A stretch of DNA of 32,000 nt from Sinorhizobium meliloti (GCF_017876815.1 NZ_JAGIOS010000001.1:1740001-1772000), one strand, 5' to 3'; positions 36 to 20,734 are shown, counted from the first letter of the stretch. The notes: generated from the letters alone by a model not told the origin. A program made the numbers and translations.

Positions 36-530
36 CTATATGGAGCGCTCGTCGAAGTTCGGTCTCGATCGAATGAACGTCCATAGACGTTTGCTGATAT
101 CGGTGATCTCGCGGACCGCATTGTCGAGACGCGCCATCTCGCGTGCATCCAGCTGCTCGACCTTGCCGTAGCGCACATCCTTCTCGCCTTCGACGAGCCG
201 CATCAGCTGCGTGCTCGAAATCTCGCCCTGCTCGTCGACGGAGTAGATGCAGTGATTGTACTTGTTGCGCATCTTCGATTGCTGCTTCAGGCGCTCGGTT
301 ATGGCGAGCACCTCGTCGCGAGTCGCCACGGGGATCCGCGGCAGCTTCGCCAGACGCTCTGTCAGATCGATACGCGCGCGGGTCGTATTCAGCGTCAGGA
401 AAACGACGATGGCCGCGTCCTTTTCCACCCCCAGAAGGTGGGCGATCACGTAGATCAGCAGGCTTTCGGTGTTGGTCCACACGTAGTTCAGGCGACCAAC
501 GAGCAAAAGCACATCCTGTGCAGCCGCCAT
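36..530 (-). CDS. hypothetical protein, 164 aa (track ORF starts at an upstream TTG at 542)
   Basis: Complete ORF, co-oriented with the HlyD-family gene and about 100 nt downstream of it. The ATG at 528-530 is preceded by TGGAGA with 5-nt spacing. I do not recognise the translation (MAAAQDVLLLVGRLNYVWTNTESLLIYVIAHLLG...) as any family. It has a moderately hydrophobic N-terminal third and a charged helical-looking C-terminal part. Confidence 0.5.
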   Translation of the reverse strand: MAAAQDVLLLVGRLNYVWTNTESLLIYVIAHLLGVEKDAAIVVFLTLNTTRARIDLTERLAKLPRIPVATRDEVLAITERLKQQSKMRNKYNHCIYSVDEQGEISSTQLMRLVEGEKDVRYGKVEQLDAREMARLDNAVREITDISKRLWTFIRSRPNFDERSI

Positions 531-628
531 GGCGATCTCCAAGCGGTCCCGAGAATGATGCGCCAGGACCGGATTTGCGCAATTGCATTTTCCGCCGATC
601 GAAACCGGCTTCCATCGATGTCCTGCAT

Positions 629-1981
629 TCAGGTCTCCTTGAACGCGCGCGACATGCTGTCTGTGATGGGCTTCGTCAGATATTCGAAGAAGGTGCGCTC
701 CGAGGTGGTGATCAGCACCTCGGCCGGCATGCCGGGCACGGGGTGGAAGCCGTGGATGCGTCCGATCTCGCTCGCCGGCACTTCGACGCGCACGATATAG
801 ACGTCGCGCTGCTGGCCGCCGGCTACTTCCTCCTCGATCGAATCCGCCGACACGTAGAAGACCTTGCCTTTCAGCACCGGCGTCGTGCGGCGATTGAGTG
901 CCGAAAGCCGGATCGTCGCGTCCTCGCCGACCTTGAGCTGATCGATGGCGGTACGCAGCAACTGCGCCTCGATGATCAGCGGCACATTGGCCGGTAGGAT
1001 CTCCATGATCGGCTTTCCGCTTGCGATGACGCCGCCGGCCGTATGGAAGTAGCTGCGCACGACGGTGCCGTCGACAGGCGAGCGGATGGTGGCGCGGCCG
1101 AGCACTTCTGACGCCTCCCGAACCTGCTCGCGTACGCCGTCGAGATCGGCCTCGGCCGCTTCGAGGCCATCGAGCGCCGCCTGCTTGTTGGTATTGACGG
1201 CGATGACCGCCTCCTGGCGGTAGCGGTCGATCTGCGTGTAGCTCTCCTTGACCTCGGATTCGAGCCGGCCGATCTCGCCGATCGCGTCGGCGATCGCGCG
1301 GTCCAACGCCATGAGTTCCGGGCGCCGGATCAGGCCCTTGTCGGCGAGCTTGCTCTTGGCCTCCCGCTCCTCGTTGAGAATCTCCAGCTGCCGGTTGAAC
1401 GATGCCTGCTGCAGAGCGTATCCCCTGGCCCGGAATTCAAGCGAACGGATGTTCTGGTCGATCAGGTTCAGCTGGTCGCGCAGCTTGATCTTCTTGCTCT
1501 GAAAATTGACGTTCTGGCTTTCCATGATGGCGCGGACGTCGGGATCGTCGGCCTGTCGGGCGACAATTTGGGGTACGCTGAAGGCGTCTTCGCCCACCGC
1601 CTCCGCCCTCAACCGCCCGACGACTGCCTCCAGGCGGAGGCGCTTGAGGTTGAGCATACGTGCGTTGGCCCGGGCGACCGTCTGGTCGAGCTTCACGAGA
1701 ATGTCGCCGGCCTTGACCTTGTCGCCCTCGGCGACCAGCAGTTCCTCGATGATGCCGCCTTCCAGATGCTGGACGATCTTGTTGTTGCCGTTGGCGACGA
1801 AGCTTCCCTGCGCGATGATTGCCGCGGCGAGCGGTGCCGCGAAAGCCCAGTAGCCGAAGCCGCCGAAGGAGATCGCGATCAGCGCCAGGCCAAGCAGGGT
1901 GTGGAGCCGGATCGAACGGGGGACCTCGGCATACCACTCCGCCGGATTTCGAGGTTCGCCGCTCCGCTTGTCGCTTTGCAT
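629..1981 (-). CDS. type I secretion periplasmic adaptor (membrane fusion protein), HlyD/PrtE family, 450 aa
   Basis: Translation from the ATG at 1979-1981 (MQSDKRSGEPRNPAEWYAEVPRSIRLHTLLGLALIAISFGGFGYWAF...) has one N-terminal TM segment. It then shows a lipoyl-like motif (AEGDKVKAGDILVKLD), a long coiled-coil and a C-terminal barrel (SPVDGTVV...GGVIASGKPIMEILP...IIEAQL...LKVGEDATIRLSA), as in HlyD-family T1SS adaptors. A GGAGAG RBS is present and the ATG lies 2 nt after the ABC gene stop. I rejected the extra 44 Arg-rich residues of the track ORF, which overlap the ABC gene. Confidence 0.9.
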   Translation of the reverse strand: MQSDKRSGEPRNPAEWYAEVPRSIRLHTLLGLALIAISFGGFGYWAFAAPLAAAIIAQGSFVANGNNKIVQHLEGGIIEELLVAEGDKVKAGDILVKLDQTVARANARMLNLKRLRLEAVVGRLRAEAVGEDAFSVPQIVARQADDPDVRAIMESQNVNFQSKKIKLRDQLNLIDQNIRSLEFRARGYALQQASFNRQLEILNEEREAKSKLADKGLIRRPELMALDRAIADAIGEIGRLESEVKESYTQIDRYRQEAVIAVNTNKQAALDGLEAAEADLDGVREQVREASEVLGRATIRSPVDGTVVRSYFHTAGGVIASGKPIMEILPANVPLIIEAQLLRTAIDQLKVGEDATIRLSALNRRTTPVLKGKVFYVSADSIEEEVAGGQQRDVYIVRVEVPASEIGRIHGFHPVPGMPAEVLITTSERTFFEYLTKPITDSMSRAFKET

Positions 1982-1983
1982 CG

Positions 1984-4071
1984 TCACTCTCCGTGAATGC
2001 GGGATTGCCCGCGGTCGCCTTCGGCCTTTGCGCCAAGCGCGGCGAGCACCTCGTTTCGGGCGCCGAACATCGCCACGGTGCCTTCGTGCAGCACCATAAT
2101 CTTGTCGACACACTGCAGGAGAGCAGGGCGCTGCGTGATGGTGACGGTGGTGATGCCCTCCTTCCTGGCATGCAACAGCGCGCGGGCAAGTGCGGCCTCG
2201 CCATTGCTGTCGAGGTTCGAATTCGGCTCGTCGAGGACGACGAATTTCGGATTGCCGAAGAAGGCGCGCGCCAGAGCTATGCGCTGTTTCTGACCGCCCG
2301 ACAGCGGGGCGCCGTCAGCGGCGACCACGGTCTCGTAGCCTTGCGGAAAGGTTGCGATCAGTTCGTGCACGTCGGCGAGCACCGCCGCCTCATAAACCAA
2401 GCTGTCGTCGACATCGTCGCGCATGCGGCAGATATTGGCCTTGATCGTACCCGGGAAGAGCTGGACGTCCTGGGGAAGGTAGCCGATGCTTTCGCCGAAC
2501 TGGCGCTGATCCCAGTTGCGCAGGTCCATGAGATCGAGGCGAACACTGCCGGACGTGGGCAGAATCGAACCGACCAGCATCTTGCCGAGGGTGGTCTTGC
2601 CGGAGCCGGAATTGCCGATGACCGCAAGCGATTCCCCCTTTGCCAGCGAAAAGGAGATGCCGTTCAGGATCACCCGCTTCTGCGGCGGCGGGACGAAGAG
2701 GATGCGCTCGACGTCGAGCCTGCCTTCCGGCTTCGGCAGGCGCAGCCGCGGGAAGTTCAAGGGCGAGGTGAGCAAGAGCTGCCTGATGCGCTGATAGGCG
2801 GCACGCGAGTGATTGAGCTGGTTCCAGCCTTCGATAGCCCCTTCGACGGGCGCGAGCGCACGCCCGGCAATGATCGAAGCGGCGATCACCATGCCGCCGG
2901 TCAGTTGCCCTTCCATCGCCAGATGCGCTCCCCAGCCGAGAAGTGCCACCTGGGTGAACATCCGCACGGCCCTGGAGGCGCCGGTGAACATTATGTTGCG
3001 GTCCTGAGCGTAGACCTGCGCCTTGAGCGAGGCCGCCGTCTCCTGGCCCCACATCCTCACCGCTTCCGGAATCATCGCCATGGCATTGATGATCTGGGCG
3101 TTGCGCGCCATCGAGTCGAGATGAAAATTGGCCCGGCCGAGCGAGGCATTGGCTTCGCTGAACGGTTTTGTCGTCGCCTTCTGATTGAGATAGGCGATGA
3201 CGAAGAGAACCGTACAGCACAGGATGACGATCATGCCGAGTTGTGGCTGTATGAGGTAGACCACGATCACGAAGAGCGGTGTCAGCGGAGCGTCGAGGAA
3301 AGCGGTGAGCGTGCCGGAGGTGATGAAGGCGCGAAGCTGCTGCAGGTCGCCCAATATCTGGTAGTCCCGGCCGCTTCCGTGCAGCGAGGCTCGGGCTGCC
3401 GCACTGAGGATCGGTGTGCCGAGCTGGACCTCGATTTCGACGGCGGTGCGCATCAGGATGAAGCGGCGGATCGCGTCGAGAATAACCTGGAGCGCCACGG
3501 CGCCGAGCACGGCGATCGTCAGCATGACCAGCGTGTCCTGCGAGCGGCTGGTCAGGACCCGGTCGGATATCTGGAACAGATAGATCGGGATGGCCAGGAC
3601 CAGGACATTGATGGCCAGGGTGAAAGCGATGACGATCAGCATGTTGCGCCGGACAGCGGCCATGCCGTTGTGCAGGCTGGCGGCGAAGTTCGCCGGTCCC
3701 ATGCGCTTGTGAAGCGTGCTCCGGCCGCCGCCGTTTTCGCTCGCTTGCCCTTCACCCGTTGCGCTCGGTTCAACCGGGCGAAGGTCGCCTTGCTTCATCG
3801 GGCCCGGATCATTGTCGATCGTTCGCGGCAGCCCTGGGGGTTGCCGGCGTCCCACCTTGGGAACCTCGCCCTCGTTGCGGCACGCATCGGTCGATGCCGA
3901 TGCTTGCTCTCGCTCCGAGAAGCTTGCCGCGGCTGCCTTTCCGTCCGACCCTGACCGCTTTCCGAAGCGTGTGACAGCCTCGGCTTCGGCCGTCCCGGGC
4001 AGCTCCAGCCGTGCGACATCGTGGCGCTGCGGCTTGCCTCGCCCGGCATACCACTTCGACATGTCGTTCAT
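1984..4071 (-). CDS. type I secretion ABC permease/ATPase, PrtD/AprD class (no C39 peptidase domain), about 695 aa including an N-terminal extension
   Basis: Walker A GNSGSGKTT, ABC signature LSGGQKQRIALARA and Walker B VVLDEPNSNLD are present. The TMD begins with LFQISDRVLTSRSQDTLVMLT, typical of T1SS exporters. The start is uncertain. The ATG at 4069-4071 has a GGGGAG RBS at 5-nt spacing. The track start at 4236 would overlap the upstream gene by 62 nt and has a poor RBS. Internal ATGs at 3798 and 3702 have no RBS. Confidence 0.9.
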   Translation of the reverse strand: MNDMSKWYAGRGKPQRHDVARLELPGTAEAEAVTRFGKRSGSDGKAAAASFSEREQASASTDACRNEGEVPKVGRRQPPGLPRTIDNDPGPMKQGDLRPVEPSATGEGQASENGGGRSTLHKRMGPANFAASLHNGMAAVRRNMLIVIAFTLAINVLVLAIPIYLFQISDRVLTSRSQDTLVMLTIAVLGAVALQVILDAIRRFILMRTAVEIEVQLGTPILSAAARASLHGSGRDYQILGDLQQLRAFITSGTLTAFLDAPLTPLFVIVVYLIQPQLGMIVILCCTVLFVIAYLNQKATTKPFSEANASLGRANFHLDSMARNAQIINAMAMIPEAVRMWGQETAASLKAQVYAQDRNIMFTGASRAVRMFTQVALLGWGAHLAMEGQLTGGMVIAASIIAGRALAPVEGAIEGWNQLNHSRAAYQRIRQLLLTSPLNFPRLRLPKPEGRLDVERILFVPPPQKRVILNGISFSLAKGESLAVIGNSGSGKTTLGKMLVGSILPTSGSVRLDLMDLRNWDQRQFGESIGYLPQDVQLFPGTIKANICRMRDDVDDSLVYEAAVLADVHELIATFPQGYETVVAADGAPLSGGQKQRIALARAFFGNPKFVVLDEPNSNLDSNGEAALARALLHARKEGITTVTITQRPALLQCVDKIMVLHEGTVAMFGARNEVLAALGAKAEGDRGQSRIHGE

Positions 4072-4174
4072 GCTCGCTCCCCTGCGCTTGCGCTTGAAGT
4101 CGTTTCGGTTCGAACCGTCCAACGGGTCTTCCGTTCGAACCTGTGCAGTCCCAAGGGCTCGAAGCGGATCGGCT

Positions 4175-6229
4175 TCAAGCCAGTATCGTATGCATGACGT
4201 CGCTCCACTGGCTCCCGGACTGGTCGGTGCCGACATCGCCGTCCATGTCTTCGCCTTGCCGCGCCGTATCCTCGCCGATAAAGGCGATGAGTTCGGTCGT
4301 CAGACCGCCACTTTCCCGCTGAAGGTCCGGCATCCCGTCGACTATTCCCGATTGAATGAGCACCGCGTCGGAATAGGACCCGCCTCCGACATAGGTCGTC
4401 CCGCTGGAACCGTCGAAGTCGATGATTTCGGCGACATTAACGACGGCATTGTTTCCCGTATGCACCGTGACCGAGGCCTCCGATCCATCTTCGAGCACCT
4501 TGCCGACGGCATACGAGACGGCATCGGCGTCGCCGAGAATGCTGACCTGTTGGACGATCGTGATGTCGTAGAGATTGCCGGTGATGAACAGGATGTGCAG
4601 GTCGGCATAGCCCTCGAAATCATGGTCTCGCAGGAGTTCGTCCGGCAATGTACCGTCGCCCTCGCGCATCTGGTCGGCGGCCTCATGAAAGTAGTCCGGC
4701 ATTGCCTCAAAGCGGACGCCGGAGCTCACGTTTTCGATCGAGGCCATGTTCCAGACGAGATTGCCGCCCGTGTCCAGCGCGATGCCCTTGCCGGCGGATA
4801 TGCCTGCGATCTCGTCATTGTCGTAGAGGATGGAGATCTGGCTGATGACGTTGAGATCGACTAGCCGGCCGCCGACGAGGACCAGATCGTAATGCTCGGC
4901 AATGCCGAGGAACGATGCGACGTTCACTGCCGTGTTGCCGCCGCTGAGTACGGTCGTCTCCGCACCCGTCCTGGTGACGGTCAGCCTGTCATTGTCGCTG
5001 ACGAAGTTGTACTGCTCGATCCAATGGACGAGGGAAAGGTCGCCTTCGACGACATTCACCTGCCAGTTTTTTGGGAATGTCGGAGATTCGGCCGGAATCT
5101 CCGGTTCCCCGGGAAGGCTCGCCCCGGATTCGCCTCCCCCGAAGCTTGCTATGTTCAGTGCGACGGTCGTGGTCATCGTCGCGCATGTACCGGAGATCGC
5201 GCCGTCGAGCGTGTCCCTGTCGGCATAGACGTAGGATTGCGAGATGACATCGATTTGATGGTAGTCGCCCATCACGGCGGTCACGGGTGCGGCCGCGGCA
5301 GTGCCGACGACGCTGGCAACATTGGCGACGACATTGGTCCCCGCGTCGATGTCGAGGTCGCCGTTCTGAAGCGGTTTGTCGAGGGGCGTCTCGGCGGGGT
5401 GCGCGGTGTGCTCTCGCCCGGGAAGATTGTCGCGCAGTTCCGGCGCGGTCTCGGCGCGGGTGCCGTTGACATAGGTGCCTTCAATGCGCTCTGCGATGAG
5501 AACGGCATCGCCCGACTCGTTCTTCACCAGTTCGTCCGGAGAGGCGGCTTGCGGAAGGTTCTCCGGTCCGCCTGTCGCGGGCGCGGCCGGAACGGCCTGT
5601 TGGCTGGTGCCCGCCATGGAGGCAAGTGCTTCAAGGTTCGCCACCCCTGCGGCGAAAGAGGCGGGCGCATCGGCGGCGCCGATCCGCGCGAAGGGCGAGG
5701 CTTCAAGGGCTTCCGCGAGAAAATCTTCGAGCGTTTGGTCAACATGCGTCAGGTTGCGCGGTTCCACAAGCATGCCGGTCAGGTTCACGACATCGTCGTC
5801 ATGAAGGGTGCTTGCCTGATAGATATGGCTGAACACCGGGTCGGGACCCGCAGGAGGCATCGTACCCGACGCTTCGGGGCCGTTGCCGGAGATGCCGTGG
5901 TCCTCCCGGGACCGGACATCCACCTGTCCGGCTTGCGCCGCGCCGGCCGGTTGGTCGAGGTGATGCCGTGACGGGGCTACATGATCGGCGGAGTCGAGCC
6001 GGGCGATGTCGTAAGCCCGGAGTTCGTAGGAGATATCGGGATCGTAGCTTTTCAACGCGAAGTCAGACCGGAAATCAGGCGATTGTACGTAGTCGGAATC
6101 TTCCTTTTGCACAGTCTTCGGGGTTTCATATCCCTGCAGGTATTCAAATCTTATACGCGCGTCATCGATAGCCGTGTTGAACAGCCCTATGAAATGCGCA
6201 ACGATCTCGTTGATCTTCTCCGAGTGCAT
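4175..6229 (-). CDS. 684-aa acidic repeat protein, candidate T1SS cargo (non-RTX)
   Basis: ATG at 6227-6229 with a GGGGAAGGA RBS, located immediately upstream of the ABC/MFP pair. There is no N-terminal signal peptide. Five degenerate modules carrying an N-x-A motif and a hydrophobic-x-Q-x-S-I-L-x-D-x-D motif span aa 296-631. The C-terminus is acidic then hydrophobic (...GEDMDGDVGTDQSGSQWSDVMHTILA). There are no GGxGxD nonapeptides. Confidence 0.7.
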   Translation of the reverse strand: MHSEKINEIVAHFIGLFNTAIDDARIRFEYLQGYETPKTVQKEDSDYVQSPDFRSDFALKSYDPDISYELRAYDIARLDSADHVAPSRHHLDQPAGAAQAGQVDVRSREDHGISGNGPEASGTMPPAGPDPVFSHIYQASTLHDDDVVNLTGMLVEPRNLTHVDQTLEDFLAEALEASPFARIGAADAPASFAAGVANLEALASMAGTSQQAVPAAPATGGPENLPQAASPDELVKNESGDAVLIAERIEGTYVNGTRAETAPELRDNLPGREHTAHPAETPLDKPLQNGDLDIDAGTNVVANVASVVGTAAAAPVTAVMGDYHQIDVISQSYVYADRDTLDGAISGTCATMTTTVALNIASFGGGESGASLPGEPEIPAESPTFPKNWQVNVVEGDLSLVHWIEQYNFVSDNDRLTVTRTGAETTVLSGGNTAVNVASFLGIAEHYDLVLVGGRLVDLNVISQISILYDNDEIAGISAGKGIALDTGGNLVWNMASIENVSSGVRFEAMPDYFHEAADQMREGDGTLPDELLRDHDFEGYADLHILFITGNLYDITIVQQVSILGDADAVSYAVGKVLEDGSEASVTVHTGNNAVVNVAEIIDFDGSSGTTYVGGGSYSDAVLIQSGIVDGMPDLQRESGGLTTELIAFIGEDTARQGEDMDGDVGTDQSGSQWSDVMHTILA

Positions 6230-6310
6230 TGTCCGATCCTTCCCCTTTCCGCAGCAAAGGGTGCCTTCGACCTCTTTTTTTCTTCAAACGGATACGAGTG
6301 AAGGAAACGT

Positions 6311-6326
6311 GCGGGCGTTCGCCCGC
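6311..6326 (-). terminator. intercistronic GC hairpin between the small and large cargo genes (possible attenuator or processing site)
   Basis: GCGGGCGTTCGCCCGC is a near-perfect palindrome in the 137-nt gap between the stop at 6367 and the start at 6229. On the minus strand it is followed by ACGTTTCCTTC, so the U-tract is only weak. Confidence 0.3.
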
Positions 6327-6366
6327 GATCGGTCTTCCCCGTTGCACGGCCGGAGCATCCGGTAAT

Positions 6367-6918
6367 TCATTCGACGTCGCCATCCGACCCCGCCGGGATC
6401 ACGCCCGGATCGCCAACGATGGTGCTGACGTCGGCGTTGCTGAGAAGGTTCGCGCCCTGGACGATTTCGTGGTGGAAGTCCGGATTTACCGGGCCTGGCG
6501 GCGTCTCCGTCGAGGGGTGGGACGCATCCTCGCCCTTGAGATCCCAACCATCCGGGGCGAGGCCGTCGGCACCAGGTTCTCCGCTACCTGCGCCGGGATC
6601 GGCATTGCCGCTCTTGCTGACGTCATAAGCACGGTCCTGATCGGCGAGGCTATTGGCCTGGGCGAGGCTGAACCCGGCTTCGTAGATGCTGGCGCCATTG
6701 CCCAGAACATTGTCGACGTCAAGGGAAAAGGAAAAGCCGTCGCCGAGGGAGAAGGCAAAGTCGCCCCCGGCGGTCTCGGTGAGACTGGTGCTGCCACCGG
6801 CAACCGACCTGCTGGACGTGTTCGTCGCTACGCCATCGGCAAGCGCACCCGTCTTCAGCTCGTCATCGGCACTGAAGTTGTCGTGGAGCCCAAGATTCTT
6901 CTGTGAGGAATCGGGCAT
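6367..6918 (-). CDS. 183-aa highly acidic Gly/Asp/Ser-rich protein, second candidate T1SS cargo
   Basis: The ATG at 6916-6918 is preceded by GAGGAAG at about 6 nt. The track start at 6963 lacks an RBS. By my count there are 30 Asp+Glu versus 6 Lys+Arg, and no Cys. There is no signal peptide. It contains the mini-repeats GDFAFSL / GDGFSFSL / EAGFSLA. It is the first gene of the apparent T1SS operon. Confidence 0.6.
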   Translation of the reverse strand: MPDSSQKNLGLHDNFSADDELKTGALADGVATNTSSRSVAGGSTSLTETAGGDFAFSLGDGFSFSLDVDNVLGNGASIYEAGFSLAQANSLADQDRAYDVSKSGNADPGAGSGEPGADGLAPDGWDLKGEDASHPSTETPPGPVNPDFHHEIVQGANLLSNADVSTIVGDPGVIPAGSDGDVE

Positions 6919-7928
6919 AAGCACTTCCTCATAAGAGGGGGAGCCAGCACCGAAACCCTTCATCTTTTATAGGATTCTTGAGGCGCTGGCTCTTTTGGCG
7001 GTTTAGCGGAAATGAAATCTTCCGTCTCTGCTTGCAATGTCATTTTGGCGCGATACTAAGCGCCTAAATTTATACGTATGATAAATTCATAGTCATAAGA
7101 TTTGGCATATAAACGTAAGTATCTATACTTCCGATCTTCTACGCGAAACAACGACCGAAGACGCACAAAATGTTGGTGCGACCATTGGAGTGTGATCTGG
7201 AACGCTGCTGAGTGAAAGCTACCTATTGTGGTTATGAGACTCGGCACCGGCCGCCTCGGAATTTTCGCCTTATATTCGATGCGCCGCAACCGAAGCGCTC
7301 GTTTCGAGCGCAGCTCGCGCTTCCCTCGCCATGGCTGTGCATATACATTGATCCAGCCGCTGCGCTAAGAAACTGAAAATACTCGAGAATGTTGATCGGA
7401 GTCGTGCAGGTCGTTTGCCGGGGCCCGCTTGGAACGCGGGAGTGAAGGCCGGCTGCAGGAATCCGTGGCGGAAAGTGCGCCGGCCACCTGCGTCAGCACC
7501 CGATCGAGTGTATTGGCCGCGGCCCGCATTACCTTCGCGATAATCCGATGTGAGTATCGACCTCGTCAAACGGAGTGGCGAATACTTGTCCGAGTTACTG
7601 CGAAGAACTTCGCGGGACTGACGAGGCGTAAGGTGCGGCACCCCTCAAAACCGAGGGCCCGGCGAAAGGCGCGAGTGGCGTTGCCGATCCCGTACGAATT
7701 TCGCGGATTCGCCCAAAATTGGTTCGTTCTTGAACGATTTAGACAGGATTGTGGCCGCCACCTAATCCTTTTGGGCGGTTTTACATCCCCCATATTTACG
7801 ATACATTAGCCAACATAAATTCTTTTTTTCCAGAAATTTTTTTTATCCAAGCAATTTTCACAACGCGGGCCTTTCTCCACATGGGTAAAAAACCCGTAAA
7901 AACCAAGGGGAAGTCCGAGGAGGGGATA
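6919..7928. promoter_or_regulatory. ~1-kb divergent intergenic control region with strongly AT-rich flanks
   Basis: No convincing ORF. AT-rich blocks lie at about 7040-7290 and 7720-7930 in an otherwise GC-rich window. Homopolymer runs T7 (7823-7829) and T8 (7837-7844) lie upstream of the LuxR gene. The region sits between divergent starts at 6918 (-) and 7929 (+). Confidence 0.5.
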
Positions 7929-8717
7929 ATGTATCGTGCGAGTTCGGGGTTGGGCGGGTTCGAAGACAGCAAAAGTGTATTACCGAAAAAAAGCAAAATA
8001 GTCATGCTAGCCAGGACGGACCTCTTCGCCGAGTGTCTGACCCAGGCGATCGGGGCGCGTTTTCAGGACCGGGAAGTGGTGCGGCTTTCGGACGCCGACA
8101 GCCTTCTGGACGGCAACCTCGTAGATGTGACGCTGGTCATGCTCTACCGCGTGCCGACGGCAAACTTTCCGTCGATCATCAGGATGATCCATGAGTTTCA
8201 TCCGAAAGCGGCGATCGGCCTGCTGGTCGACAACGCGGAAGGGCTCGACGCGTCGGTTTCGCACCTGGTCGAGGAGGGGATGATCCACGGTGTGTTGCCC
8301 CTGAATCTCCACCTCGATGTCTGCCTCACCGCCATAGACCTCCTGATGAAGGGCGGCGAACATTTTCCCGCCGCACTGCTCAGGCGCCTCGCGCCGAAGA
8401 ATCCTGGAGAGCGGGACCTCGCCACCCGGAACGAGACGGCTTCTGAAAATGTCGATCCGGAGCGCAGGAAAGGATTTGGCCAGGTCGTCCTTACGACACG
8501 CGAAATCCAGATTCTCGATCTCATCTGCATGGGCACGCAGAACAAGATCATCGCAGATCGCCTCGGACTGTCCGAAAACACCGTCAAGGTGCATGTGCGC
8601 AACATCTACAAGAAGATGAACGTGCGCAATCGCACCGAGGCGGCCTCGCGCTATTTCAGAAACGACGGAGGCATGGGCCCTTCCCTCACGCCCTCGCCGA
8701 CGCGCTGGCGCAACTGA
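7929..8717 (+). CDS. LuxR/FixJ-family transcriptional regulator with a degenerate receiver-like N-terminal domain, 262 aa
   Basis: C-terminal GerE/LuxR HTH (LTTREIQILDLICMGTQNKIIADRLGLSENTVKVHVRNIYKKMNVRNRTEA). The ATG at 7929 is preceded by GAGGAGGGG. Alternative ATGs are at 7881 and 8004. The N-terminal domain has a receiver-like beta-alpha pattern, but the positions expected for the acidic pocket (KIVMLARTDLF) and the phospho-Asp (VDVTLVMLYRVP) are not Asp. Confidence 0.8.
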   Translation: MYRASSGLGGFEDSKSVLPKKSKIVMLARTDLFAECLTQAIGARFQDREVVRLSDADSLLDGNLVDVTLVMLYRVPTANFPSIIRMIHEFHPKAAIGLLVDNAEGLDASVSHLVEEGMIHGVLPLNLHLDVCLTAIDLLMKGGEHFPAALLRRLAPKNPGERDLATRNETASENVDPERRKGFGQVVLTTREIQILDLICMGTQNKIIADRLGLSENTVKVHVRNIYKKMNVRNRTEAASRYFRNDGGMGPSLTPSPTRWRN

Positions 8718-8737
8718 CCGTTCGACCCTAAGACAAG

Positions 8738-8771
8738 GCTGCCGCGCGGCGTCTCTACGCCGCCCGGCAGC
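8738..8771. terminator. GC-rich hairpin between the convergent luxR-type and hpd genes (likely bidirectional terminator)
   Basis: GCTGCCGCGCGGCGT-CTCT-ACGCCGCCCGGCAGC forms a 15-bp stem with one mismatch and a 4-nt loop. It lies in the 89-nt gap between the stops at 8717 (+) and 8807 (-). Confidence 0.5.
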
Positions 8772-8806
8772 TCTATGTTTCCGGCCATACTGGACATCAG
8801 CAGCCG

Positions 8807-9919
8807 CTATTCCGCGGCCTCGTGGCCAAGGACGCCGCGCCGGATCTGGTCGGCTTCGATCGATTCGAACAATGCGCGGAAATTGCCTTCGCCGAAGCCC
8901 TCGTCGCCCTTGCGCTGGATGAATTCGAAGAAGATCGGACCGATCACCGTTCGCGAGAAGATCTGCAGCAGGATCTTCGTCATGCCGCCATTCACCACGC
9001 CCTCGCCGTCGATCAGGATGCCGTGTGTCCTCATCCGGTCGATCGGCTCGTCGTGTCCGTGAACGCGCTGATGGGACATTTCATAATAGGTTTCCGGTGG
9101 CCCCGGCATGAACTTCAGGCCGTTTTCGGCGAGTTTGTCGGTCGCATCGTAGATCGCCTCGGTACCGACGGCGATGTGCTGGATGCCTTCGCCTTTGTAC
9201 TTCTTCAGATACTCCTCGATCTGGCTCGTGTCGTCCTTCGATTCGTTCAGGGGAATGCGGATCTTGCCGCAGGGCGAGGTAATCGCCCGGCTGACGAGGC
9301 CGGTGATGCGGCCATCGATGTCGAAGAAATGGATCTGCTTGAAATTGAACAGTTCGCGATAGAAGGCCCACCACTTGTCCATGTTGCCGCGATAGACGTT
9401 GTGGGTCAGGTGGTCGAGATAGTAGAAGCCGACGCCGGGCGGCTTCGGATCACGCTCTCCCAGCCATTCGAACTCGGCGTCATAGGCCGATCCCTTTTCG
9501 CCGTAGGCTTCCACGAAATAGAGAAGCGAGCCGCCGATGCCGACGATCGCCGGCACGTCCAGGCACTTGTTGTTGCCGGTATAGGCTTCGGCGCCCTTGG
9601 CGACGGCGTGCTCGAAAGCATGCTTCGCGTCGACGACGCGCCAGGCCATCGACGGGGCGCAGGGCCCGTGCTCGCCGACGAAGCGCATGGCATGCGATCC
9701 GGCTTGCGCATTCAGGACATAGTTGATATCGCCCTGCCGCCAGACGGTGATGTCCTTGGTCTTGTGCCTGGCGATCGGCGTATAGCCCATACGGCCGAAG
9801 AGCTCCGCAAGCTTCTCCGGCTCCGGGTGGGCGAACTCCACAAACTCGAAACCGTCCGTCCCTGCGGGGTTCTCCGCCGAAATCGCGGGGGGCGGTGCGT
9901 CATGTGGGAACGGGCCCAT
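8807..9919 (-). CDS. hpd: 4-hydroxyphenylpyruvate dioxygenase, 370 aa
   Basis: The translation has the typical HPPD C-terminus (GILIDGE...ILLQIFS...GPIFFEFIQRKGDEGFGEGNFRALFESIEADQIRRG). The ATG at 9917-9919 has an AGGAGA RBS. I rejected the 53 extra residues of the track ORF. Confidence 0.93.
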   Translation of the reverse strand: MGPFPHDAPPPAISAENPAGTDGFEFVEFAHPEPEKLAELFGRMGYTPIARHKTKDITVWRQGDINYVLNAQAGSHAMRFVGEHGPCAPSMAWRVVDAKHAFEHAVAKGAEAYTGNNKCLDVPAIVGIGGSLLYFVEAYGEKGSAYDAEFEWLGERDPKPPGVGFYYLDHLTHNVYRGNMDKWWAFYRELFNFKQIHFFDIDGRITGLVSRAITSPCGKIRIPLNESKDDTSQIEEYLKKYKGEGIQHIAVGTEAIYDATDKLAENGLKFMPGPPETYYEMSHQRVHGHDEPIDRMRTHGILIDGEGVVNGGMTKILLQIFSRTVIGPIFFEFIQRKGDEGFGEGNFRALFESIEADQIRRGVLGHEAAE

Positions 9920-10049
9920 CGTCAGTCTCCTCTTATCCTCCAAACTCTGCTGGATTATGGCGCAGTTTCGATGCATGGTGCTTGTATTCTTGCGTGATTC
10001 AGCAGGATCGGCGCATGAATTGTGCAGAGAAGCGTTTGAGGGTGCATGA

Positions 10050-10529
10050 ATGGAGCTGCTTGACGGATTCGATCTCAAGATCCTGAGCGAACTGCAGCGC
10101 GACGGTCATCTGACCAACAACGAATTGTCCGAGCGCGTCGCGCTGTCTCCTTCGCAATGTTCGCGCCGGCGTACGCGCCTGGAGGCGGAAGGCTTCATCA
10201 CCGGCTACCAGGCGCAGATCGACCGTCAGAAGCTGGGGCTCGATCTGATGGTGGTGATTTCGGTCACGCTGGCCACGCACAATCGCGACAATGCCAAGCG
10301 TTTCGCCAATCTCGTTTCGGCTCTGCCGGAGGTGCTGGAGGCCTACGCGCTGACTGGTGAAATGGACTACCATCTGCGCGTCGTGACGCCGGATCTTGCC
10401 GGGCTCTCCCGCTTCGTCAACGAGGTGCTCCTGCCGCATGACAGCGTGCAGCACGTCAAGACATCGATCGTACTGGAGACGCTCAAGAGTTTCGAGGGGC
10501 TGCCGATACCGGCGCGGATGAAGGGGTAA
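10050..10529 (+). CDS. Lrp/AsnC-family transcriptional regulator, 159 aa
   Basis: MELLDGFDLKILSELQRDGHLTNNELSERVALSPSQCSRRRTRLEAEGFI is a classical Lrp/AsnC HTH, followed by a RAM-type C-terminal domain. The gene is divergent from hpd. A GAGGG RBS is present. Confidence 0.9.
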   Translation: MELLDGFDLKILSELQRDGHLTNNELSERVALSPSQCSRRRTRLEAEGFITGYQAQIDRQKLGLDLMVVISVTLATHNRDNAKRFANLVSALPEVLEAYALTGEMDYHLRVVTPDLAGLSRFVNEVLLPHDSVQHVKTSIVLETLKSFEGLPIPARMKG

Positions 10530-10551
10530 GCGCTAACCGTCCGCACCTTTG

Positions 10552-10998
10552 CTAGCGGTCATTGATCGCCCGCTCCACGGCGCCCAGGCCCTGCGAGAGC
10601 GCCTCCATATTCTCTGCCCCAAGCACGGAATGCAGCTCCGCCTGATAGTCGCTCGCAAGCTCGGTCAGCTCCCTATAGGCCTGCCGGCCCGCCGGCGTCA
10701 GCGCCAGATGCTCGAAACGGCGGTCCCGCCCGTCCTCCTCGCGCTTCAGCCAGCGGCGCTGCTCGAGGCTGAAGACCGCGCGGCTTACTTTCGTCTTGTG
10801 CATGGTGGAGTGCGCGCCGATTTCGGTTGCCGTCATGCTGCGGCGGGAGCTGCCGAGTGCCGCAAGCGTTCTCCATTCCGGGCGCGTCAGCTGGTATCGC
10901 GCTTTGTATTGTGCGGCAAAACGGAGGGCGACGAATTCCGCCGCCCGGTTCAGCCGATAGGGCAGGAAGTTCTCCAGTTCGAACCGCTCCTCGGCCAT
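10552..10998 (-). CDS. MarR-family transcriptional regulator, 148 aa
   Basis: Winged-helix MarR pattern (...TRPEWRTLAALGSSRRSMTATEIGAHSTMHKTKVSRAVFSLEQRRWLKREEDGRDRR...). ATG with an AAGGAAGGAAAG RBS. The gene is divergent from hmgA. Confidence 0.85.
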   Translation of the reverse strand: MAEERFELENFLPYRLNRAAEFVALRFAAQYKARYQLTRPEWRTLAALGSSRRSMTATEIGAHSTMHKTKVSRAVFSLEQRRWLKREEDGRDRRFEHLALTPAGRQAYRELTELASDYQAELHSVLGAENMEALSQGLGAVERAINDR

Positions 10999-11015
10999 GG
11001 CTTTCCTTCCTTGAT

Positions 11016-11046
11016 AGTTACAAAACTGACAGTTACGCTTGTAACT
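11016..11046. promoter_or_regulatory. candidate MarR operator in the marR-hmgA divergent promoter
   Basis: AGTTAC (11016-11021) is followed by the palindrome AGTTAC-GCTT-GTAACT (11031-11046), inside the 79-nt gap between the two start codons. Confidence 0.35.
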
Positions 11047-11077
11047 AATATAGCGAAGGAATGAGGAGGCTCAAGCC

Positions 11078-12439
11078 ATGTTGGAGAAGGCGGAAAAACA
11101 GCGGCGGGCAGGTTCGGGTCAGCAGCGCGCAGCCGGCTATATGCCTGGATTCGGCAACGACTTCGAGACGGAAAGCCTGCCCGGAGCGCTGCCGCAGGGG
11201 CAGAACAGCCCGCAGAAATGCAATTACGGCCTTTATGCCGAACAGCTTTCCGGCTCACCCTTTACGGCACCCCGCGGCACGAACGAGCGCTCCTGGCTCT
11301 ACCGGATCCGACCGAGCGTCCGCCACACCGGACGCTTCCGCAGGGTCGACTATCCGCATTGGAAGACAGCGCCGCATGTGGGCGAGCATTCCCTGGCGCT
11401 CGGGCAGTTGCGCTGGAGCCCTTTGCCGGCGCCCTCGGAAGCGCTGGACTTCCTTCAAGGCATCCGCACGATGACGACGGCGGGCGACGCGCTGACGCAA
11501 GCCGGCATGGCCGCGCATGCCTATGCCTTCAATGCCGACATGGTGGACGACTATTTCTTCAACGCCGACGGCGAGTTGCTGATCGTTCCCGAAACGGGCG
11601 CGATCCAGGTTTTCACCGAACTCGGCAGGATGGACGTGGAGCCGTCCGAAATCTGCCTCATACCGCGCGGCATGATGTTCAAGGTCACTCGCCTCGGAGA
11701 GGAGAAGGTCTGGCGCGGTTACATCTGCGAGAATTACGGCGCGAAGTTCACGCTCCCGGATCGCGGCCCGATCGGCGCCAATTGCCTTGCCAATCCGCGC
11801 GACTTCAAGACGCCGGTCGCCGCCTACGAGGACAAGGAAACGCCGTGCCGGGTACAGGTGAAGTGGTGCGGCTCGTTCCATATGGTCGAGATCGGCCATT
11901 CGCCGCTCGACGTCGTTGCCTGGCACGGCAATTACGCGCCCTACAAATACGACCTCAAGACCTTCTCGCCCGTCGGCGCGATCCTGTTCGACCATCCCGA
12001 TCCGTCGATCTTCACGGTGCTGACGGCGCCTTCGGGAGAGGAGGGGACGGCCAATGTCGACTTCGTCATATTCCCGCCCCGCTGGCTGGTCGCCGAACAT
12101 ACGTTCCGCCCTCCCTGGTATCACCGCAACATCATGAGCGAGTTCATGGGCCTGATCTACGGGCGCTACGATGCGAAGGAGGAAGGATTCGTTCCGGGCG
12201 GCATGAGCCTGCACAACATGATGCTGGCGCACGGGCCGGACTTCTCCGGGTTCGAGAAGGCTTCCAACGGCGAGCTGAAGCCGGTGAAGCTCGACAACAC
12301 CATGGCTTTCATGTTCGAGACCCGCTTCCCTCAGCAGCTGACGACGTTTGCCGCAGAGCTCGACACGCTGCAGGACGACTACATGGATTGCTGGTCCGGC
12401 CTCGAACGGAAATTCGACGGCACGCCTGGAATCAAGTGA
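11078..12439 (+). CDS. hmgA: homogentisate 1,2-dioxygenase, 453 aa
   Basis: Translation ([46 protein letters not shown]...[40 protein letters not shown]) is typical HmgA. The ATG at 11078 has a GAGGAGG RBS. Confidence 0.95.
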
Positions 12440-12519
12440 CTTCCGCCGCCGAACCGTGACATGCTGCAAATATCCGCGCCACCCGGCGAGGATCAACAAC
12501 GCATCGGGAACACCACTCC

Positions 12520-13536
12520 ATGAAACTCGCGACGCTGAAAGATTCCACCCGCGACGGCAAGCTCGTCGTGGTCTCGAAAGACCTGACCCGCTGCTCCGAG
12601 GTGGGTCATATTGCCCGCACGCTGCAGGCTGCGCTCGACGACTGGGCGCATGCGGGTCCGCGGCTGGAGCGCGTCGCCGAGGGGATCGAGACCGGGGCGC
12701 AGCCGACCATGCGATTTCATGAGCACGACGCAGCCTCGCCGCTGCCGCGTGCCTTCCAGTGGGCGGACGGTTCGGCCTATGTCAATCATGTCGAGCTTGT
12801 CCGAAAGGCGCGCAATGCCGAGATGCCGGCAAGTTTCTGGACCGATCCGCTGATCTATCAGGGCGGTTCCGACAGTTTTCTCGGCCCACGCGATCCGATC
12901 CTGATGGCCGACGATGCCTGGGGCATCGATATGGAAGGCGAAGCCGCTGTCATCGTCGACGACGTGCCCATGGGTGCGACGCTCGATGAAGCAAAGGCCG
13001 CGATCCGCCTAGTCATGCTCGTCAACGACGTCTCCCTGCGGGGCCTCATTCCCGGAGAACTCGCCAAGGGCTTCGGCTTCTATCAATCGAAGCCGTCCTC
13101 CGCCTTCTCGCCGGTCGCGGTGACGCCGGAGGAACTCGGCGAAGCCTGGGATGGCGGGAAGCTGCATCTGCCGCTTCACGTCGATCTCAATGGCGAGCCC
13201 TTCGGGAGGGCCAATGCCGGTATCGACATGACCTTCGATTTTCCGCAGCTGATCGTGCACGCCGCGCGAACGAGGCCGCTTTCGGCCGGCACGATCATCG
13301 GCTCGGGCACCGTTTCCAACAAGCTCGAGGGCGGGCCGGGCAGGCCGGTTTCCGAAGGCGGGGCCGGCTATTCGTGCATCGCGGAATTGCGCATGATCGA
13401 GACGATTGAAGGCGGGGCGCCGAAAACGCAATTCCTGAAATTCGGCGATGTCGTCCGCATCGAGATGAAGGATCGCACCGGCCATTCGATTTTCGGCGCC
13501 ATCGAACAGAAGGTCGGAAAATACGAGCGCGGCTGA
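12520..13536 (+). CDS. fumarylacetoacetate hydrolase (FAH) family protein, 338 aa, probable fumarylacetoacetase of the homogentisate pathway
   Basis: FAH-fold C-terminal motifs are present (EGEAAVIVDD..., ...GTIIGSGTVSN...). Its position between hmgA and maiA supports the pathway role. Confidence 0.85.
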   Translation: MKLATLKDSTRDGKLVVVSKDLTRCSEVGHIARTLQAALDDWAHAGPRLERVAEGIETGAQPTMRFHEHDAASPLPRAFQWADGSAYVNHVELVRKARNAEMPASFWTDPLIYQGGSDSFLGPRDPILMADDAWGIDMEGEAAVIVDDVPMGATLDEAKAAIRLVMLVNDVSLRGLIPGELAKGFGFYQSKPSSAFSPVAVTPEELGEAWDGGKLHLPLHVDLNGEPFGRANAGIDMTFDFPQLIVHAARTRPLSAGTIIGSGTVSNKLEGGPGRPVSEGGAGYSCIAELRMIETIEGGAPKTQFLKFGDVVRIEMKDRTGHSIFGAIEQKVGKYERG

Positions 13537-13547
13537 GGCCGGGCAGG

Positions 13548-14201
13548 GTGGAGACGGGTGTGGCGAACGAAACCGTGCTTTACGACTATTGGCGCTCGTC
13601 GGCGAGCTACCGGGTGCGGATCGCCCTCAACCTGTGCGGCGAAGCCTATCGCTCCGTCCCGGTCGACCTGCTCGCAAAGGCTCATCGCGCGCCGGAGCAT
13701 CTCGCCCGGAATCCGCAGGGATTGGTGCCGGTGCTCGACATCGACGGCGAGCGCCTCACCCAGTCGCTCGCCATCATCGAATATCTTGCGGAGACGCGGG
13801 ATGGGACGGGTCTCCTCCCGGCCCATCCCATCGACCGGCAACGCGTCCGCGCGCTTTCCTATGCCGTGGCGATGGATATCCATCCCGTCTGCAATCTCGG
13901 CGTGGTCGCCCGTGTGATGGCGGGCGCGGGCGACGGCGAGGCCGCGCGGCGCGAGTGGATGCAGAAATTCATCGGCGAGGGTCTCGCTGCCTTCGAGCGT
14001 ATGCTGGACCACCCCGCGACCGGTGCATTCTGCCATGGCGATCGTCCGACGATGGCGGATCTCTGCCTTGTGCCCCAGGTCTACAATGCGCGGCGCTGGG
14101 ATGTCGATCTTGCGGCCTGCCCGCTTCTGGTCGCCATAGATCGCCGCTGCGCCGGCATCGACGCCTTCCAGAGGGCGCATCCCGACCGCGCAAAACCTTA
14201 G
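13548..14201 (+). CDS. maiA: maleylacetoacetate isomerase (zeta-class GST), about 217 aa
   Basis: LYDYWRSSASYRVRIALNL...NPQGLVPVLDIDGERLTQSLAIIEYL is the zeta-GST/MaiA signature. It starts at GTG 13548, with an alternative GTG at 13560. Confidence 0.9.
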   Translation: METGVANETVLYDYWRSSASYRVRIALNLCGEAYRSVPVDLLAKAHRAPEHLARNPQGLVPVLDIDGERLTQSLAIIEYLAETRDGTGLLPAHPIDRQRVRALSYAVAMDIHPVCNLGVVARVMAGAGDGEAARREWMQKFIGEGLAAFERMLDHPATGAFCHGDRPTMADLCLVPQVYNARRWDVDLAACPLLVAIDRRCAGIDAFQRAHPDRAKP

Positions 14202-14364
14202 ATCCCCGTCGGGATGCGATTTCGTCATTCCGGACCTCGTGTGGCCTGTTCCGCCAAGCCGATGTCGCGAATGGATCGGCGGGCCGCAGATCGCCAAGCT
14301 AGTTTTTGCGCGACTGCCCGTGTAAGGGGGCGCGTGGGAACACCTCAAAACGAGAGATTCATCG

Positions 14365-15249: not shown

Positions 15250-15284
15250 TCGTCAATCCTTGCCAACATTGGCATTACAGCGCC

Positions 15285-15304
15285 GCGCGTCTTATTAGAC
15301 GCGC
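15285..15304 (+). terminator. short perfect hairpin downstream of purU
   Basis: GCGCGTCT-TATT-AGACGCGC has an 8-bp stem and 4-nt loop, 36 nt after the purU stop. There is no U-tract, so terminator function is uncertain. Confidence 0.35.
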
Positions 15305-15327
15305 AAAGGTGGCTGTAGTACTTTGAT

Positions 15328-15381
15328 CTACTGCATGTTTTTGTCCTTTAATCGGACACTATCAAAGGAAACATGCAGTAG
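15328..15381. repeat. long imperfect palindrome (hairpin element)
   Basis: CTACTGCATGTTT (15328-15340) pairs with AAACATGCAGTAG (15369-15381). An inner TCCTTT/AAAGGA pair extends the stem. Confidence 0.5.
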
Positions 15382-15392
15382 CGGTCACCCAC

Positions 15393-15554: not shown

Positions 15555-15633
15555 CAATCCCGACCGAAGGAGGTTGAGGCGGTTGGGTTCCCGAGGGATG
15601 AAGCCGGCGCGCGGGAGGGGTTCGGGCGTCGCT

Positions 15634-17028: not shown

Positions 17029-17034
17029 GGACGC

Positions 17035-18315: not shown

Positions 18316-18318
18316 GGG

Positions 18319-19332: not shown

Positions 19333-19333
19333 G

Positions 19334-20734
<1,401 letters not shown>

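Follow-up and report, generated by a model that had tools for sequence, protein, structure and literature searches.

A conserved type I secretion locus of Sinorhizobium meliloti with two candidate non-RTX cargo proteins

What does a type I secretion system export when the proteins encoded beside it belong to no characterised family? This question is raised by the SMc03150-SMc03145 locus of Sinorhizobium meliloti, at positions 36 to 8717 of a 32,000-nucleotide stretch of DNA (GCF_017876815.1, NZ_JAGIOS010000001.1:1740001-1772000), hereafter the window. Five genes on its minus strand code, in this order, for an acidic 183-residue protein (SMc03149), an acidic 684-residue protein (SMc03148), an ATP-binding cassette (ABC) exporter (SMc03147), its membrane-fusion protein or adaptor (MFP; SMc03146) and a 164-residue protein (SMc03145). 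A LuxR-type gene (SMc03150) is divergent from them. An initial interpretation made from the DNA of the window (the sequence-only reading) had described an orphan type I secretion cassette with two candidate cargos, acquired as an accessory insertion. Our analysis upholds the class of the system and the cargo candidates and overturns the evolutionary part of that account, the insertion. The explanation that we favour, with moderate confidence, is an ancestral and dedicated type I locus that exports SMc03148 and probably SMc03149 and is tightly gated. What we propose about the export step and the C-terminal signal is deduced from class membership, synteny and sequence properties.

Exporter and candidate cargos

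The type I class of the cassette is supported by curated-model matches of both the ABC protein and the adaptor. The SMc03147 protein, a permease/ATPase of 695 residues (1984-4071, minus strand), matches the PrtD model TIGR01842 of NCBIfam over residues 138-679 (E = 5.9e-226, 751 bits for a cutoff of 510), as well as ABC_membrane and ABC_tran of Pfam. The SMc03146 protein (450 residues; 629-1981, minus strand), the gene of which is 2 nt away from that of the exporter, matches TIGR01843 of the same collection (E = 7e-140, 467 bits for a cutoff of 209) and the Pfam families HlyD_3 and HlyD_D23. Pfam yielded no Peptidase_C39 match on SMc03147 at E <= 0.1, the presence of a C39-like domain having been judged by sequence, with no structural comparison run. 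The exporter thus belongs to the PrtD/AprD class devoid of a C39 peptidase domain and its adaptor to the HlyD family, as the sequence-only reading had it.

The match to TIGR01842 starts only at residue 138, after an N-terminal cytoplasmic extension of ~137 residues (3661-4071, minus strand). Aligning the N termini of six species showed that it reaches ~200 residues in Rhizobium and Agrobacterium and is mostly of low complexity. Because its start, an LP..TIDNxxGP(M/I) motif and a run of Gly residues before the first transmembrane helix are conserved across genera, we take the extension to be real and, judging from these alignments, it is unusual for the PrtD class. A role in docking of the cargo is possible.

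A survey of the genes in the 32,000 nt of the window bore out that no outer-membrane factor is encoded there, which is why the cassette had been called an orphan. This arrangement is ordinary, because rhizobial type I systems rely on an unlinked TolC. According to literature cited in PMC2912261, the TolC of S. meliloti is encoded elsewhere and is required for protein secretion.

The genes directly upstream of the exporter encode the two candidate cargos. SMc03148 (4175-6229, minus strand), the main candidate, has 684 residues, a pI of 4.17 and a single Cys, and SMc03149 (6367-6918, minus strand), the second candidate, is a Gly/Asp/Ser-rich protein of 183 residues with a pI of 4.05 and no Cys. 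Both are strongly acidic and devoid of a hydrophobic N terminus. Neither contains GGxGxD or GxGxD motifs, and HemolysinCabind was not matched by any of the 44 members of the two families that we scanned. Neither SMc03148, SMc03149 nor SMc03145 has a match in Pfam or NCBIfam, and scans of both databases revealed no toxin, protease, lipase or hemophore domain in the two cargos. Their homologues, gathered in family alignments A1 and A2, gave no family match even at E <= 10. The profile and structure searches thus leave both families without a significant match to a known family or PDB fold, in agreement with the view that neither protein can be assigned to a characterised family. As two acidic, signal-peptide-less, non-RTX proteins they are natural cargo candidates, a proposal that is strengthened by their strict synteny with the exporter in ~80 species (see below).

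SMc03148 has 131 full-length, collinear homologues in Rhizobiaceae, and a profile search extended the family to 696 clusters (50% identity), with members at least as far as Aureimonas; the same profile had no match among PDB sequences. The alignment shows a strongly conserved N-terminal helix followed by a variable acidic linker, and a C-terminal half in which columns of Asn, Gln and Asp are invariant. The AlphaFold2 model is of low overall confidence, with a mean predicted local distance difference test (pLDDT) score of 54.8 and a predicted template modelling score (pTM) of 0.59, and of moderate confidence for residues ~290-632. This region corresponds to a beta-rich repeat domain (4334-5365, minus strand; residues 289-632) made of five units, the strands of which have pLDDT values of 65-89. 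Each unit comprises a long strand with a G-x-N-x-x-x-N-x-A motif and a strand with h-x-Q-x-S-h-L-x-D-x-D. The last residues, 633-684 (4178-4333, minus strand), form a tail with pLDDT values below 50 that is predicted to be disordered. It harbours a conserved L-x-x-E-h-I-A-F motif, an acidic stretch and a family-wide ending, D-V-M-(Q/H)-T-h-h-A (24 sequences). From these properties we infer that the tail is a putative uncleaved type I secretion signal.

A Foldseek search of the PDB with the SMc03148 model returned nothing at E <= 0.001. The weak neighbours, none of them significant, are all of beta-solenoid or amyloid type: FapC, SufD, tapirin, pectate lyase, an ice-binding protein and CsgA. 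They bring to mind a curli-like amyloid exported by a type I route, with SMc03148 as the fibre subunit, SMc03149 as a nucleator or minor subunit and a CsgD-like LuxR regulator. The position of FapC at the top of the list, with CsgA lower, would fit such a system, as would the conserved Asn and Gln residues, which recall those of the curli repeats, and the presence of CsgD among the best full-protein NCBIfam neighbours of the regulator. However, the top match, FapC, has an E value of 0.095 and the structural similarities are not significant (E >= 0.095, template modelling (TM) score < 0.1), the similarity to CsgD is limited to the helix-turn-helix (HTH), and no Curlin_rpt or Fap match was found in the SMc03148 family. 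A repeat shared by the two cargos, as expected of a curli-like nucleator, was also looked for and rejected: hhalign gave E = 0.24, and hidden Markov models (HMMs) of the repeat strands detected SMc03149 no better than composition-matched shuffles. We thus consider a curli-like amyloid very unlikely.

The SMc03149 family is defined by other motifs, namely GGDLTFNLGDDFSF, VQANxLADQD, GWDLK and EIVQGANLLSN (alignment A2). The database name of 'fibrinogen-binding protein', for which we found no support in SMc03149, is unfounded and probably goes back to an insert of Thr/Asp/Lys-rich repeats that the members in Rhizobium and Agrobacterium carry in addition.

The window shares 98.4% identity with the chromosome of S. 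meliloti strain Ak57. Its region studied here corresponds to SMc03150-SMc03145 on the chromosome of the S. meliloti 1021 type, and a six-frame list of open reading frames placed the five minus-strand genes and the divergent LuxR-type gene where the sequence-only reading had located them. The locus tags were taken from published tables of transcription start sites (TSSs) of strain 1021. A position x in the window equals 3185461 - y, y being the coordinate on the strain 1021 chromosome, and the published promoter strings match the window exactly at the predicted positions. SMc03147 and SMc03146 appear in none of the TSS tables searched; these two tags are inferred from the presence of three genes between SMc03149 and SMc03145. 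The exact protein sequences of the window are those of UniProt entries Q92JW0, Q92JW1 and Q92LS7 (strains 1021/2011, and also SM11, BL225C and Rm41) and are found in hundreds of contigs, with SMc03148 identical to Q92JW0_RHIME and SMc03149 to Q92JW1_RHIME.

Conservation of the module and its loss in S. medicae

The synteny set comprised 80 loci, obtained by scanning a single genome of each species with the 684-residue family and then searched by tblastn with all six proteins of the window. The gene order, i.e. the divergent LuxR gene followed by those of the 183-residue protein, the 684-residue protein, the ABC exporter, the MFP and the 164-residue protein, is kept in ~80 species wherever the contig is long enough. 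The module is present in Sinorhizobium/Ensifer, Rhizobium, Agrobacterium, Ciceribacter and Allorhizobium, and a gene for a tetratricopeptide repeat (TPR) protein usually comes next. The LuxR-type gene is syntenic and divergent in nearly all loci. Identities to the window proteins are highest for the 164-residue protein and the MFP (65-90% each) and the ABC exporter (69-84%), followed by the LuxR-type protein (43-72%), the 684-residue protein (36-55%) and the 183-residue protein (33-51%). The cargos are thus diverging faster than the machinery, as expected of extracellular proteins.

We looked up S. meliloti-type contigs by the identical Lrp protein encoded beside hpd, and all 26 long contigs read contain the cassette. 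Variable presence in S. meliloti, which its lack from the one-genome-per-species scan had suggested, was therefore discarded, as the exact-protein look-ups showed the opposite. The block adjoins hpd in all the Sinorhizobium/Ensifer species sampled, and this linkage is specific to Sinorhizobium/Ensifer. The third-codon-position GC content (GC3) of the cassette, 0.74-0.85, is that of its flanks, and no mobile-element genes are present at the block. To judge from these comparisons, the module is vertically inherited across the Rhizobiaceae and is part of the core genome of S. meliloti.

Sinorhizobium medicae is the exception. A deletion of ~5.6 kb, found in 24 of the 24 contigs read (e.g. L090:9076-10000), has removed the ABC and MFP genes as well as SMc03148 after its first 15 codons or so. 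The LuxR gene, the leader described below, a truncated SMc03149 of 166 residues, SMc03145 and the TPR gene are kept. These remnants indicate a deletion rather than prior absence.

These observations dispose of the proposal that the block was recently acquired as an accessory island beside the hpd region. The AT-rich kilobase at the edge of the block and its absence from S. medicae could have been read in that way. However, comparison of the hpd flank showed that the block is not variably present in S. meliloti-type contigs, the only variability being the loss in S. medicae, where the remnants denote a deletion. The linkage to hpd throughout Sinorhizobium/Ensifer, the occurrence of the module in Rhizobium and Agrobacterium, GC and GC3 values like those of the flanks and the lack of mobile-element genes all refute an insertion, to which we give almost no credence.

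The same data bear on the identity of the substrate. The ABC/MFP pair might export an unlinked protein or a non-protein polymer, with SMc03148 and SMc03149 serving, for example, as intracellular or inner-membrane scaffolds or regulators. For toaDE, a related pair of Rhizobium leguminosarum to which we return below, Krehenbrink and Downie found no toaD-dependent protein in the supernatant and wrote that such systems possibly 'secrete some other component' (PMC2275737). The persistence of SMc03149 in S. medicae without the pump points in the same direction, as does the conservation of residues 1-30 of SMc03148, which is unusually high for a type I cargo. Against this, the cargo-like genes strictly adjoin those of the pump in ~80 species, and their products combine features typical of type I substrates, namely acidity, few Cys residues, a conserved disordered tail and beta repeats. 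Moreover, SMc03148 and the pump have both gone from S. medicae, the pattern that a cargo and its exporter should show. We thus regard a different substrate as unlikely and prefer export of SMc03148, and probably of SMc03149, by the adjacent pump.

The last gene of the cassette, SMc03145 (36-530, minus strand), codes for a basic protein of 164 residues (pI 8.7), conserved and cytoplasmic. It is the most conserved of the block, with a mean column identity of 81% in alignment A3, has 1504 homologues and is syntenic in all complete loci. Its AlphaFold model (pLDDT 85.6) consists of a helical bundle and a three-stranded sheet. Foldseek found no significant match to this model in the PDB and no HEPN structure among its results, and profile searches against PDB sequences gave nothing; the best match in BFVD is an unnamed phage protein (A0A4Y5TZQ9, TM 0.61). 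Alignment A3 revealed an invariant R88-N-K-Y-N-H93 motif (252-269, minus strand) of R-x4-H type, which resembles that of HEPN proteins. One ortholog (P0262) is labelled 'HEPN AbiU2-like domain-containing protein' in UniRef, a label not confirmed by any HMM, and 20 members of the family gave no Pfam or PADLOC match at E <= 10.

These features suggested a role in interbacterial antagonism, in which SMc03148 and/or SMc03149 would be bacteriocin-like toxins and SMc03145 the immunity factor. Rhizobial bacteriocins are exported by type I systems, HEPN domains, evoked here by the R-x4-H motif and the unconfirmed label, are common in conflict systems, and the presence of SMc03145 in S. medicae is what one would expect of an orphan immunity gene. 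However, the locus is core and vertically inherited rather than strain-variable, and SMc03145 is the best conserved protein of the block (81%), unlike immunity proteins, which as a rule diversify along with their toxins. It lacks PADLOC and Pfam matches, and no toxin domain was found in the cargos. Altogether, antagonism appears quite unlikely. The survival of SMc03145 in S. medicae, where the secretion genes are gone, shows, at the level of gene content, that it is independent of the pump.

Immediately to the left of window position 1 is SMc03144 (strain 1021 coordinates 3185567-3186766), the gene of the TPR protein. In 45 loci from different genera (e.g. L001:4683-5894) it comes after the gene of the 164-residue protein, in the same orientation, and the conserved block thus reaches past the window. 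SMc03144 has its own mapped leader TSS, bears the small RNA (sRNA) name SmelC713 and is preceded by a CtrA peak in chromatin immunoprecipitation sequencing (ChIP-seq). On the other side of the locus, the neighbours at window positions 8807-20400 and 27193-31733 are genes of ordinary core metabolism. They include hpd, the genes of Lrp and MarR regulators, hmgA, the fumarylacetoacetase gene, maiA, purU, the bkd/lpdV operon for branched-chain keto-acid dehydrogenase and genes of cobalamin biosynthesis, one of CbiC type and two for precorrin methylases. The remainder of the window, with its genes of tyrosine catabolism, also codes for an FAD oxidoreductase and an ABC ATPase.

Control region and leader RNA

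SMc03149 is preceded by a structured 5' leader (6919-7034, minus strand) with three conserved hairpins. HP1 occupies positions 7005-7027 and HP2 positions 6941-6992, with inverted-repeat arms GAGCCAGC and GCTGGCTC; in HP3 (6927-6938) the Shine-Dalgarno sequence GAGG is paired with CCUC, all three on the minus strand. The published TSSs upstream, at 7126, 7182 and 7190 (minus strand), come from differential RNA sequencing and give a 5' untranslated region (UTR) of 208-272 nt (supplements of PMC3616915 and PMC4433202), which indicates that the leader is transcribed. The S. meliloti leader folds with a minimum free energy of -43.7 kcal/mol (z -3.6), and its three helices coexist.

The HP2 pattern is unique in the window and was matched by none of 100 shuffles. 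Each of the 26 Sinorhizobium/Ensifer loci compared, S. meliloti-type copies included, has it a single time, and a homologous leader element with different stem sequences is found in Rhizobium and Agrobacterium. RNAalifold, run on independent MAFFT alignments, recovered HP1 and HP2, with compensatory changes in 5/28 and 8/17 pairs. A covariance model built from ten sequences, R1, found exactly one match per locus in 72 of the 80 sources (1.64 Mb, both strands searched), and all matches are on the sense strand directly upstream of the ortholog of the 183-residue protein (e.g. L041:8762-8888 and L023:8754-8889). The copy in the window itself had an E value above 0.01 in the run on the whole collection and scored 21.8 bits in a separate search of 401 nt with the filters off. 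In the R1-based alignment 96.9% of the cells are paired and 19 of the 28 pairs show compensatory changes, compared with 2-7 in slid controls, a count that is biased upward since the alignment was fitted to the model. G-U pairs are found only on the sense strand.

The helix between the Shine-Dalgarno and anti-Shine-Dalgarno sequences also covaries (CUCCGA:UCGGAG, CUCCAG:CUGGAG, CUCCAA:UUGGAG and CUCCGG:CCGGAG). In Rhizobium and Agrobacterium the anti-Shine-Dalgarno sequence is shared with the closing stem of HP2, so that the two folds are mutually exclusive, which is not the case in S. meliloti. The families of Rfam 15, which include ROSE elements, riboswitches and alpha-proteobacterial sRNAs, gave no match at E <= 1 in window positions 6200-8900, and the Rhizobium version of the leader gave only noise (E 2.9-4.5). 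To judge from its conservation, its covariation and its position in the transcribed strand upstream of SMc03149, the leader is a structured cis-regulatory RNA. By eye, the loci of Rhizobium and Agrobacterium seem to contain more conserved hairpins upstream of HP1.

The leader also settles the start of SMc03149, which we place at 6918, with GAGGAA ahead. Some annotations use the ATG at 6963 instead, giving proteins of 194-199 residues. We rejected that codon because it lies within the loop of the non-coding hairpin HP2 and because indels between species break the frame.

The whole intergenic control region (6919-7928; 1010 bp, GC 0.511) is the lowest-GC kilobase of the window, for which the mean is 0.638 (sd 0.033). 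The sequence-only reading had described it as an AT-rich region of ~1 kb. This holds for the two ends (GC 0.457 and 0.430) but not for the middle (0.598). Beyond the S. meliloti clade, the spacer is conserved only next to the gene of the 183-residue protein (6923-6997) and next to the LuxR gene (7700-7928); the middle part, 7271-7700, showed no conservation outside the clade and no Rfam match. The same published supplements (PMC3616915, PMC4433202) report two sRNA candidates that are sense to the operon, SMc_sRNA_315 (7157-7254, minus strand) and SMc_sRNA_314 (7690-7806, minus strand). Both may stem from a very long leader by attenuation or processing.

At the other end of the spacer, a consensus scan identified a promoter-like site for the LuxR gene (7779-7808, plus strand), TTTTAC-N18-ACATTA. 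The published TSS of SMc03150 is at ~7815, and the pmTSS and hexamers reported there agree with the predicted promoter (supplements of PMC3616915 and PMC4433202). This promoter and the divergent one of SMc_sRNA_314 (7792-7820, minus strand) lie back to back and overlap. For CtrA, these sources give ChIP-seq peaks at ~7852 and just past SMc03145 and a predicted motif at 7001-7015. In the literature, SMc03149 is mentioned only as a CtrA-site gene altered in an ecpR1 mutant, and SMc03150 is listed only as an orphan LuxR of Rm1021.

SMc03150 (7929-8717, plus strand; 262 residues) matches GerE (PF00196) with E = 6.9e-21, its HTH corresponding to residues 188-240 (nt 8490-8648). Its best start is at 7929, with GGAGG ahead, not farther upstream. 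The N-terminal domain has no Pfam match to Response_reg (E <= 0.1) or Autoind_bind; the usual acidic pocket residues are absent by eye, and PGAP nevertheless names the protein a response regulator. Matches to SdiA, RhlR and PDB entries are confined to the HTH, and that to ErdR of NCBIfam, over residues 52-255, is partial and below the cutoff (50 bits for a cutoff of 390). The regulator thus is indeed an atypical LuxR protein, with a GerE HTH and no Pfam receiver or autoinducer-binding domain detected.

A search with the LuxR gene (window 7959-8667, plus strand, as the query) revealed paralogs in S. meliloti, S. medicae, S. fredii and S. kummerowiae, which are ~78% identical to it in nucleotide sequence and are carried by megaplasmids of the pSymA/pSymB type and by small accessory plasmids. 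A link of these paralogs to secretion was considered and dropped: in the one copy inspected (L089:6977-7741), the neighbour is a MucR-family gene and not a secretion gene.

Further hairpins are found within the operon. The one between the genes of the 183- and 684-residue proteins (6311-6326, minus strand) is GC-rich and terminator- or attenuator-like, and in S. meliloti it is weak. The same spacer of Rhizobium, Agrobacterium and Ensifer contains a perfect GC stem of 12-13 bp, GCUGCACCGGC-loop-GCCGGUGCAGC, followed by U's (L023, L052, L064 and others, ~9850-10000). This stem, perfectly conserved and much stronger than that of S. meliloti, suggests that more of the small protein is made than of the products encoded downstream. 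A second hairpin is found after the gene of the 684-residue protein.

A bolder proposal combines the leader and the cargos. The leader would represent a new class of cis-acting riboregulator, be it riboswitch-like, a thermometer or a docking site for a factor, that opens the ribosome-binding site of SMc03149 on a specific cue, and the operon would export a non-RTX, beta-repeat fibre or adhesin common to all Rhizobiaceae. We hold this combination to be a long shot. Export of such a fibre or adhesin could conceivably be behind the calcium-dependent attachment activity called rhicadhesin, for which we know of no identified gene.

Favoured explanation and comparison with known systems

In the explanation that we favour, the pump together with the unlinked TolC would export SMc03148 by means of its disordered acidic C-terminal tail, and probably SMc03149 as well. 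Outside the cell, the five beta-rich units of SMc03148 would fold into an elongated surface or matrix structure, in which ladders of Asn, Gln and Asp-x-Asp would stand in for RTX nonapeptides. Several layers of control would gate the system: the orphan LuxR-type SMc03150 acting on AT-rich, overlapping divergent promoters; binding of CtrA, as seen by published ChIP-seq; hairpins in the long 5' UTR that would sequester the ribosome-binding site of SMc03149; and hairpins after each cargo gene that would lower read-through into the exporter genes. Such multi-level gating would explain silence in ordinary culture.

Several points weigh against this explanation. The C terminus of SMc03149 (G-x-D-x-D-x) is unlike known PrtD-class signals. 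SMc03149, SMc03145 and SMc03150 persist in S. medicae without the exporter and may have functions unrelated to secretion. The model of SMc03148 has the low overall pLDDT given above and no significant fold match, and an adhesion, matrix or biofilm-type role of this protein is a guess. The mRNA of SMc03149 is unchanged on CtrA depletion (supplements of PMC3616915 and PMC4433202). Finally, equivalence with toaDE is no more than probable, the exporter identities that we measured differing from the published ones.

The locus is of interest for several reasons. It is a chromosomal type I locus common to the model organisms S. meliloti 1021, A. tumefaciens and R. leguminosarum, devoid of an assigned substrate, and its likely ortholog was termed enigmatic in 2008. 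The analysis nominates two concrete cargo candidates from families that have no Pfam or NCBIfam model, with a five-fold repeat in place of RTX. The loss in S. medicae makes two symbionts of Medicago a natural pair of knockout and wild type. The leader RNA and the layered control could account for silence in culture and suggest a way to switch the system on.

One of the closest described systems is toaDE (RL0072/RL0071) of R. leguminosarum bv. viciae 3841, an 'enigmatic', PrsDE-like pair of a PrtD-like ABC protein and an adaptor. Orthologs with similar neighbours were reported in S. meliloti and A. tumefaciens, with no known substrate nearby and no mutant phenotype (PMC2275737). Like the locus described here, toaDE is a conserved and silent PrtD-like ABC/adaptor pair, and the two are probably the same system. 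However, the published identities are 80% for S. meliloti and 86% for A. tumefaciens, whereas those measured between the R. leguminosarum, Agrobacterium and S. meliloti exporters of the present locus are 75-76%. The genes upstream were not seen as potential substrates in that study (PMC2275737). The lack of toaDE-dependent supernatant proteins or phenotypes in culture fits tight repression.

With the PrtDEF, AprDEF and HasDEF systems the locus shares matches to TIGR01842 and TIGR01843 above their cutoffs, cargo genes directly upstream, acidic and signal-peptide-less cargos and, as in several such systems, an unlinked outer-membrane partner. It differs from them by the lack of RTX nonapeptides and of protease, lipase or hemophore domains. 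Those systems have no counterpart to the conserved genes of the 164-residue and TPR proteins, and PrtD is devoid of the low-complexity N-terminal extension of 135-200 residues with TIDNxxGP borne by SMc03147.

Among rhizobial type I systems, PrsDE with PlyA, PlyB and Rap in R. leguminosarum and the secretion of Rns1 in S. meliloti (PMC9907072) are precedents for cargos with non-RTX repeats and matrix or surface roles. PlyA, PlyB and Rns1 contain PbH1 parallel beta-helix repeats and Rap cadherin-like domains, and SMc03148 and SMc03149 match none of these. Rns1, whose secretion depends on TolC, was considered as the identity of the cargo and rejected, as it is a different protein of 449 residues with PbH1 repeats, encoded in a strain-specific cluster of pSymB (PMC9907072).

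The resemblance to curli (CsgA/CsgB/CsgD) and Fap lies in repeats with conserved Asn and Gln residues, a small partner gene and a LuxR-type regulator. In contrast with those systems, the route is of type I rather than through CsgG or FapF, there is no significant sequence or fold match, and SMc03149 lacks the repeat. The leader of SMc03149 resembles ROSE and fourU thermometers and translational riboswitches in that its Shine-Dalgarno sequence is paired with an upstream anti-Shine-Dalgarno sequence in a helix with compensatory changes. It differs from them in having no Rfam match and, in S. meliloti, in having helices that are not mutually exclusive. Altogether, the machinery is standard and known, whereas the unusual extension of the ABC protein, the uncharacterised cargo families with their new repeat and the leader without an Rfam match set this locus apart.

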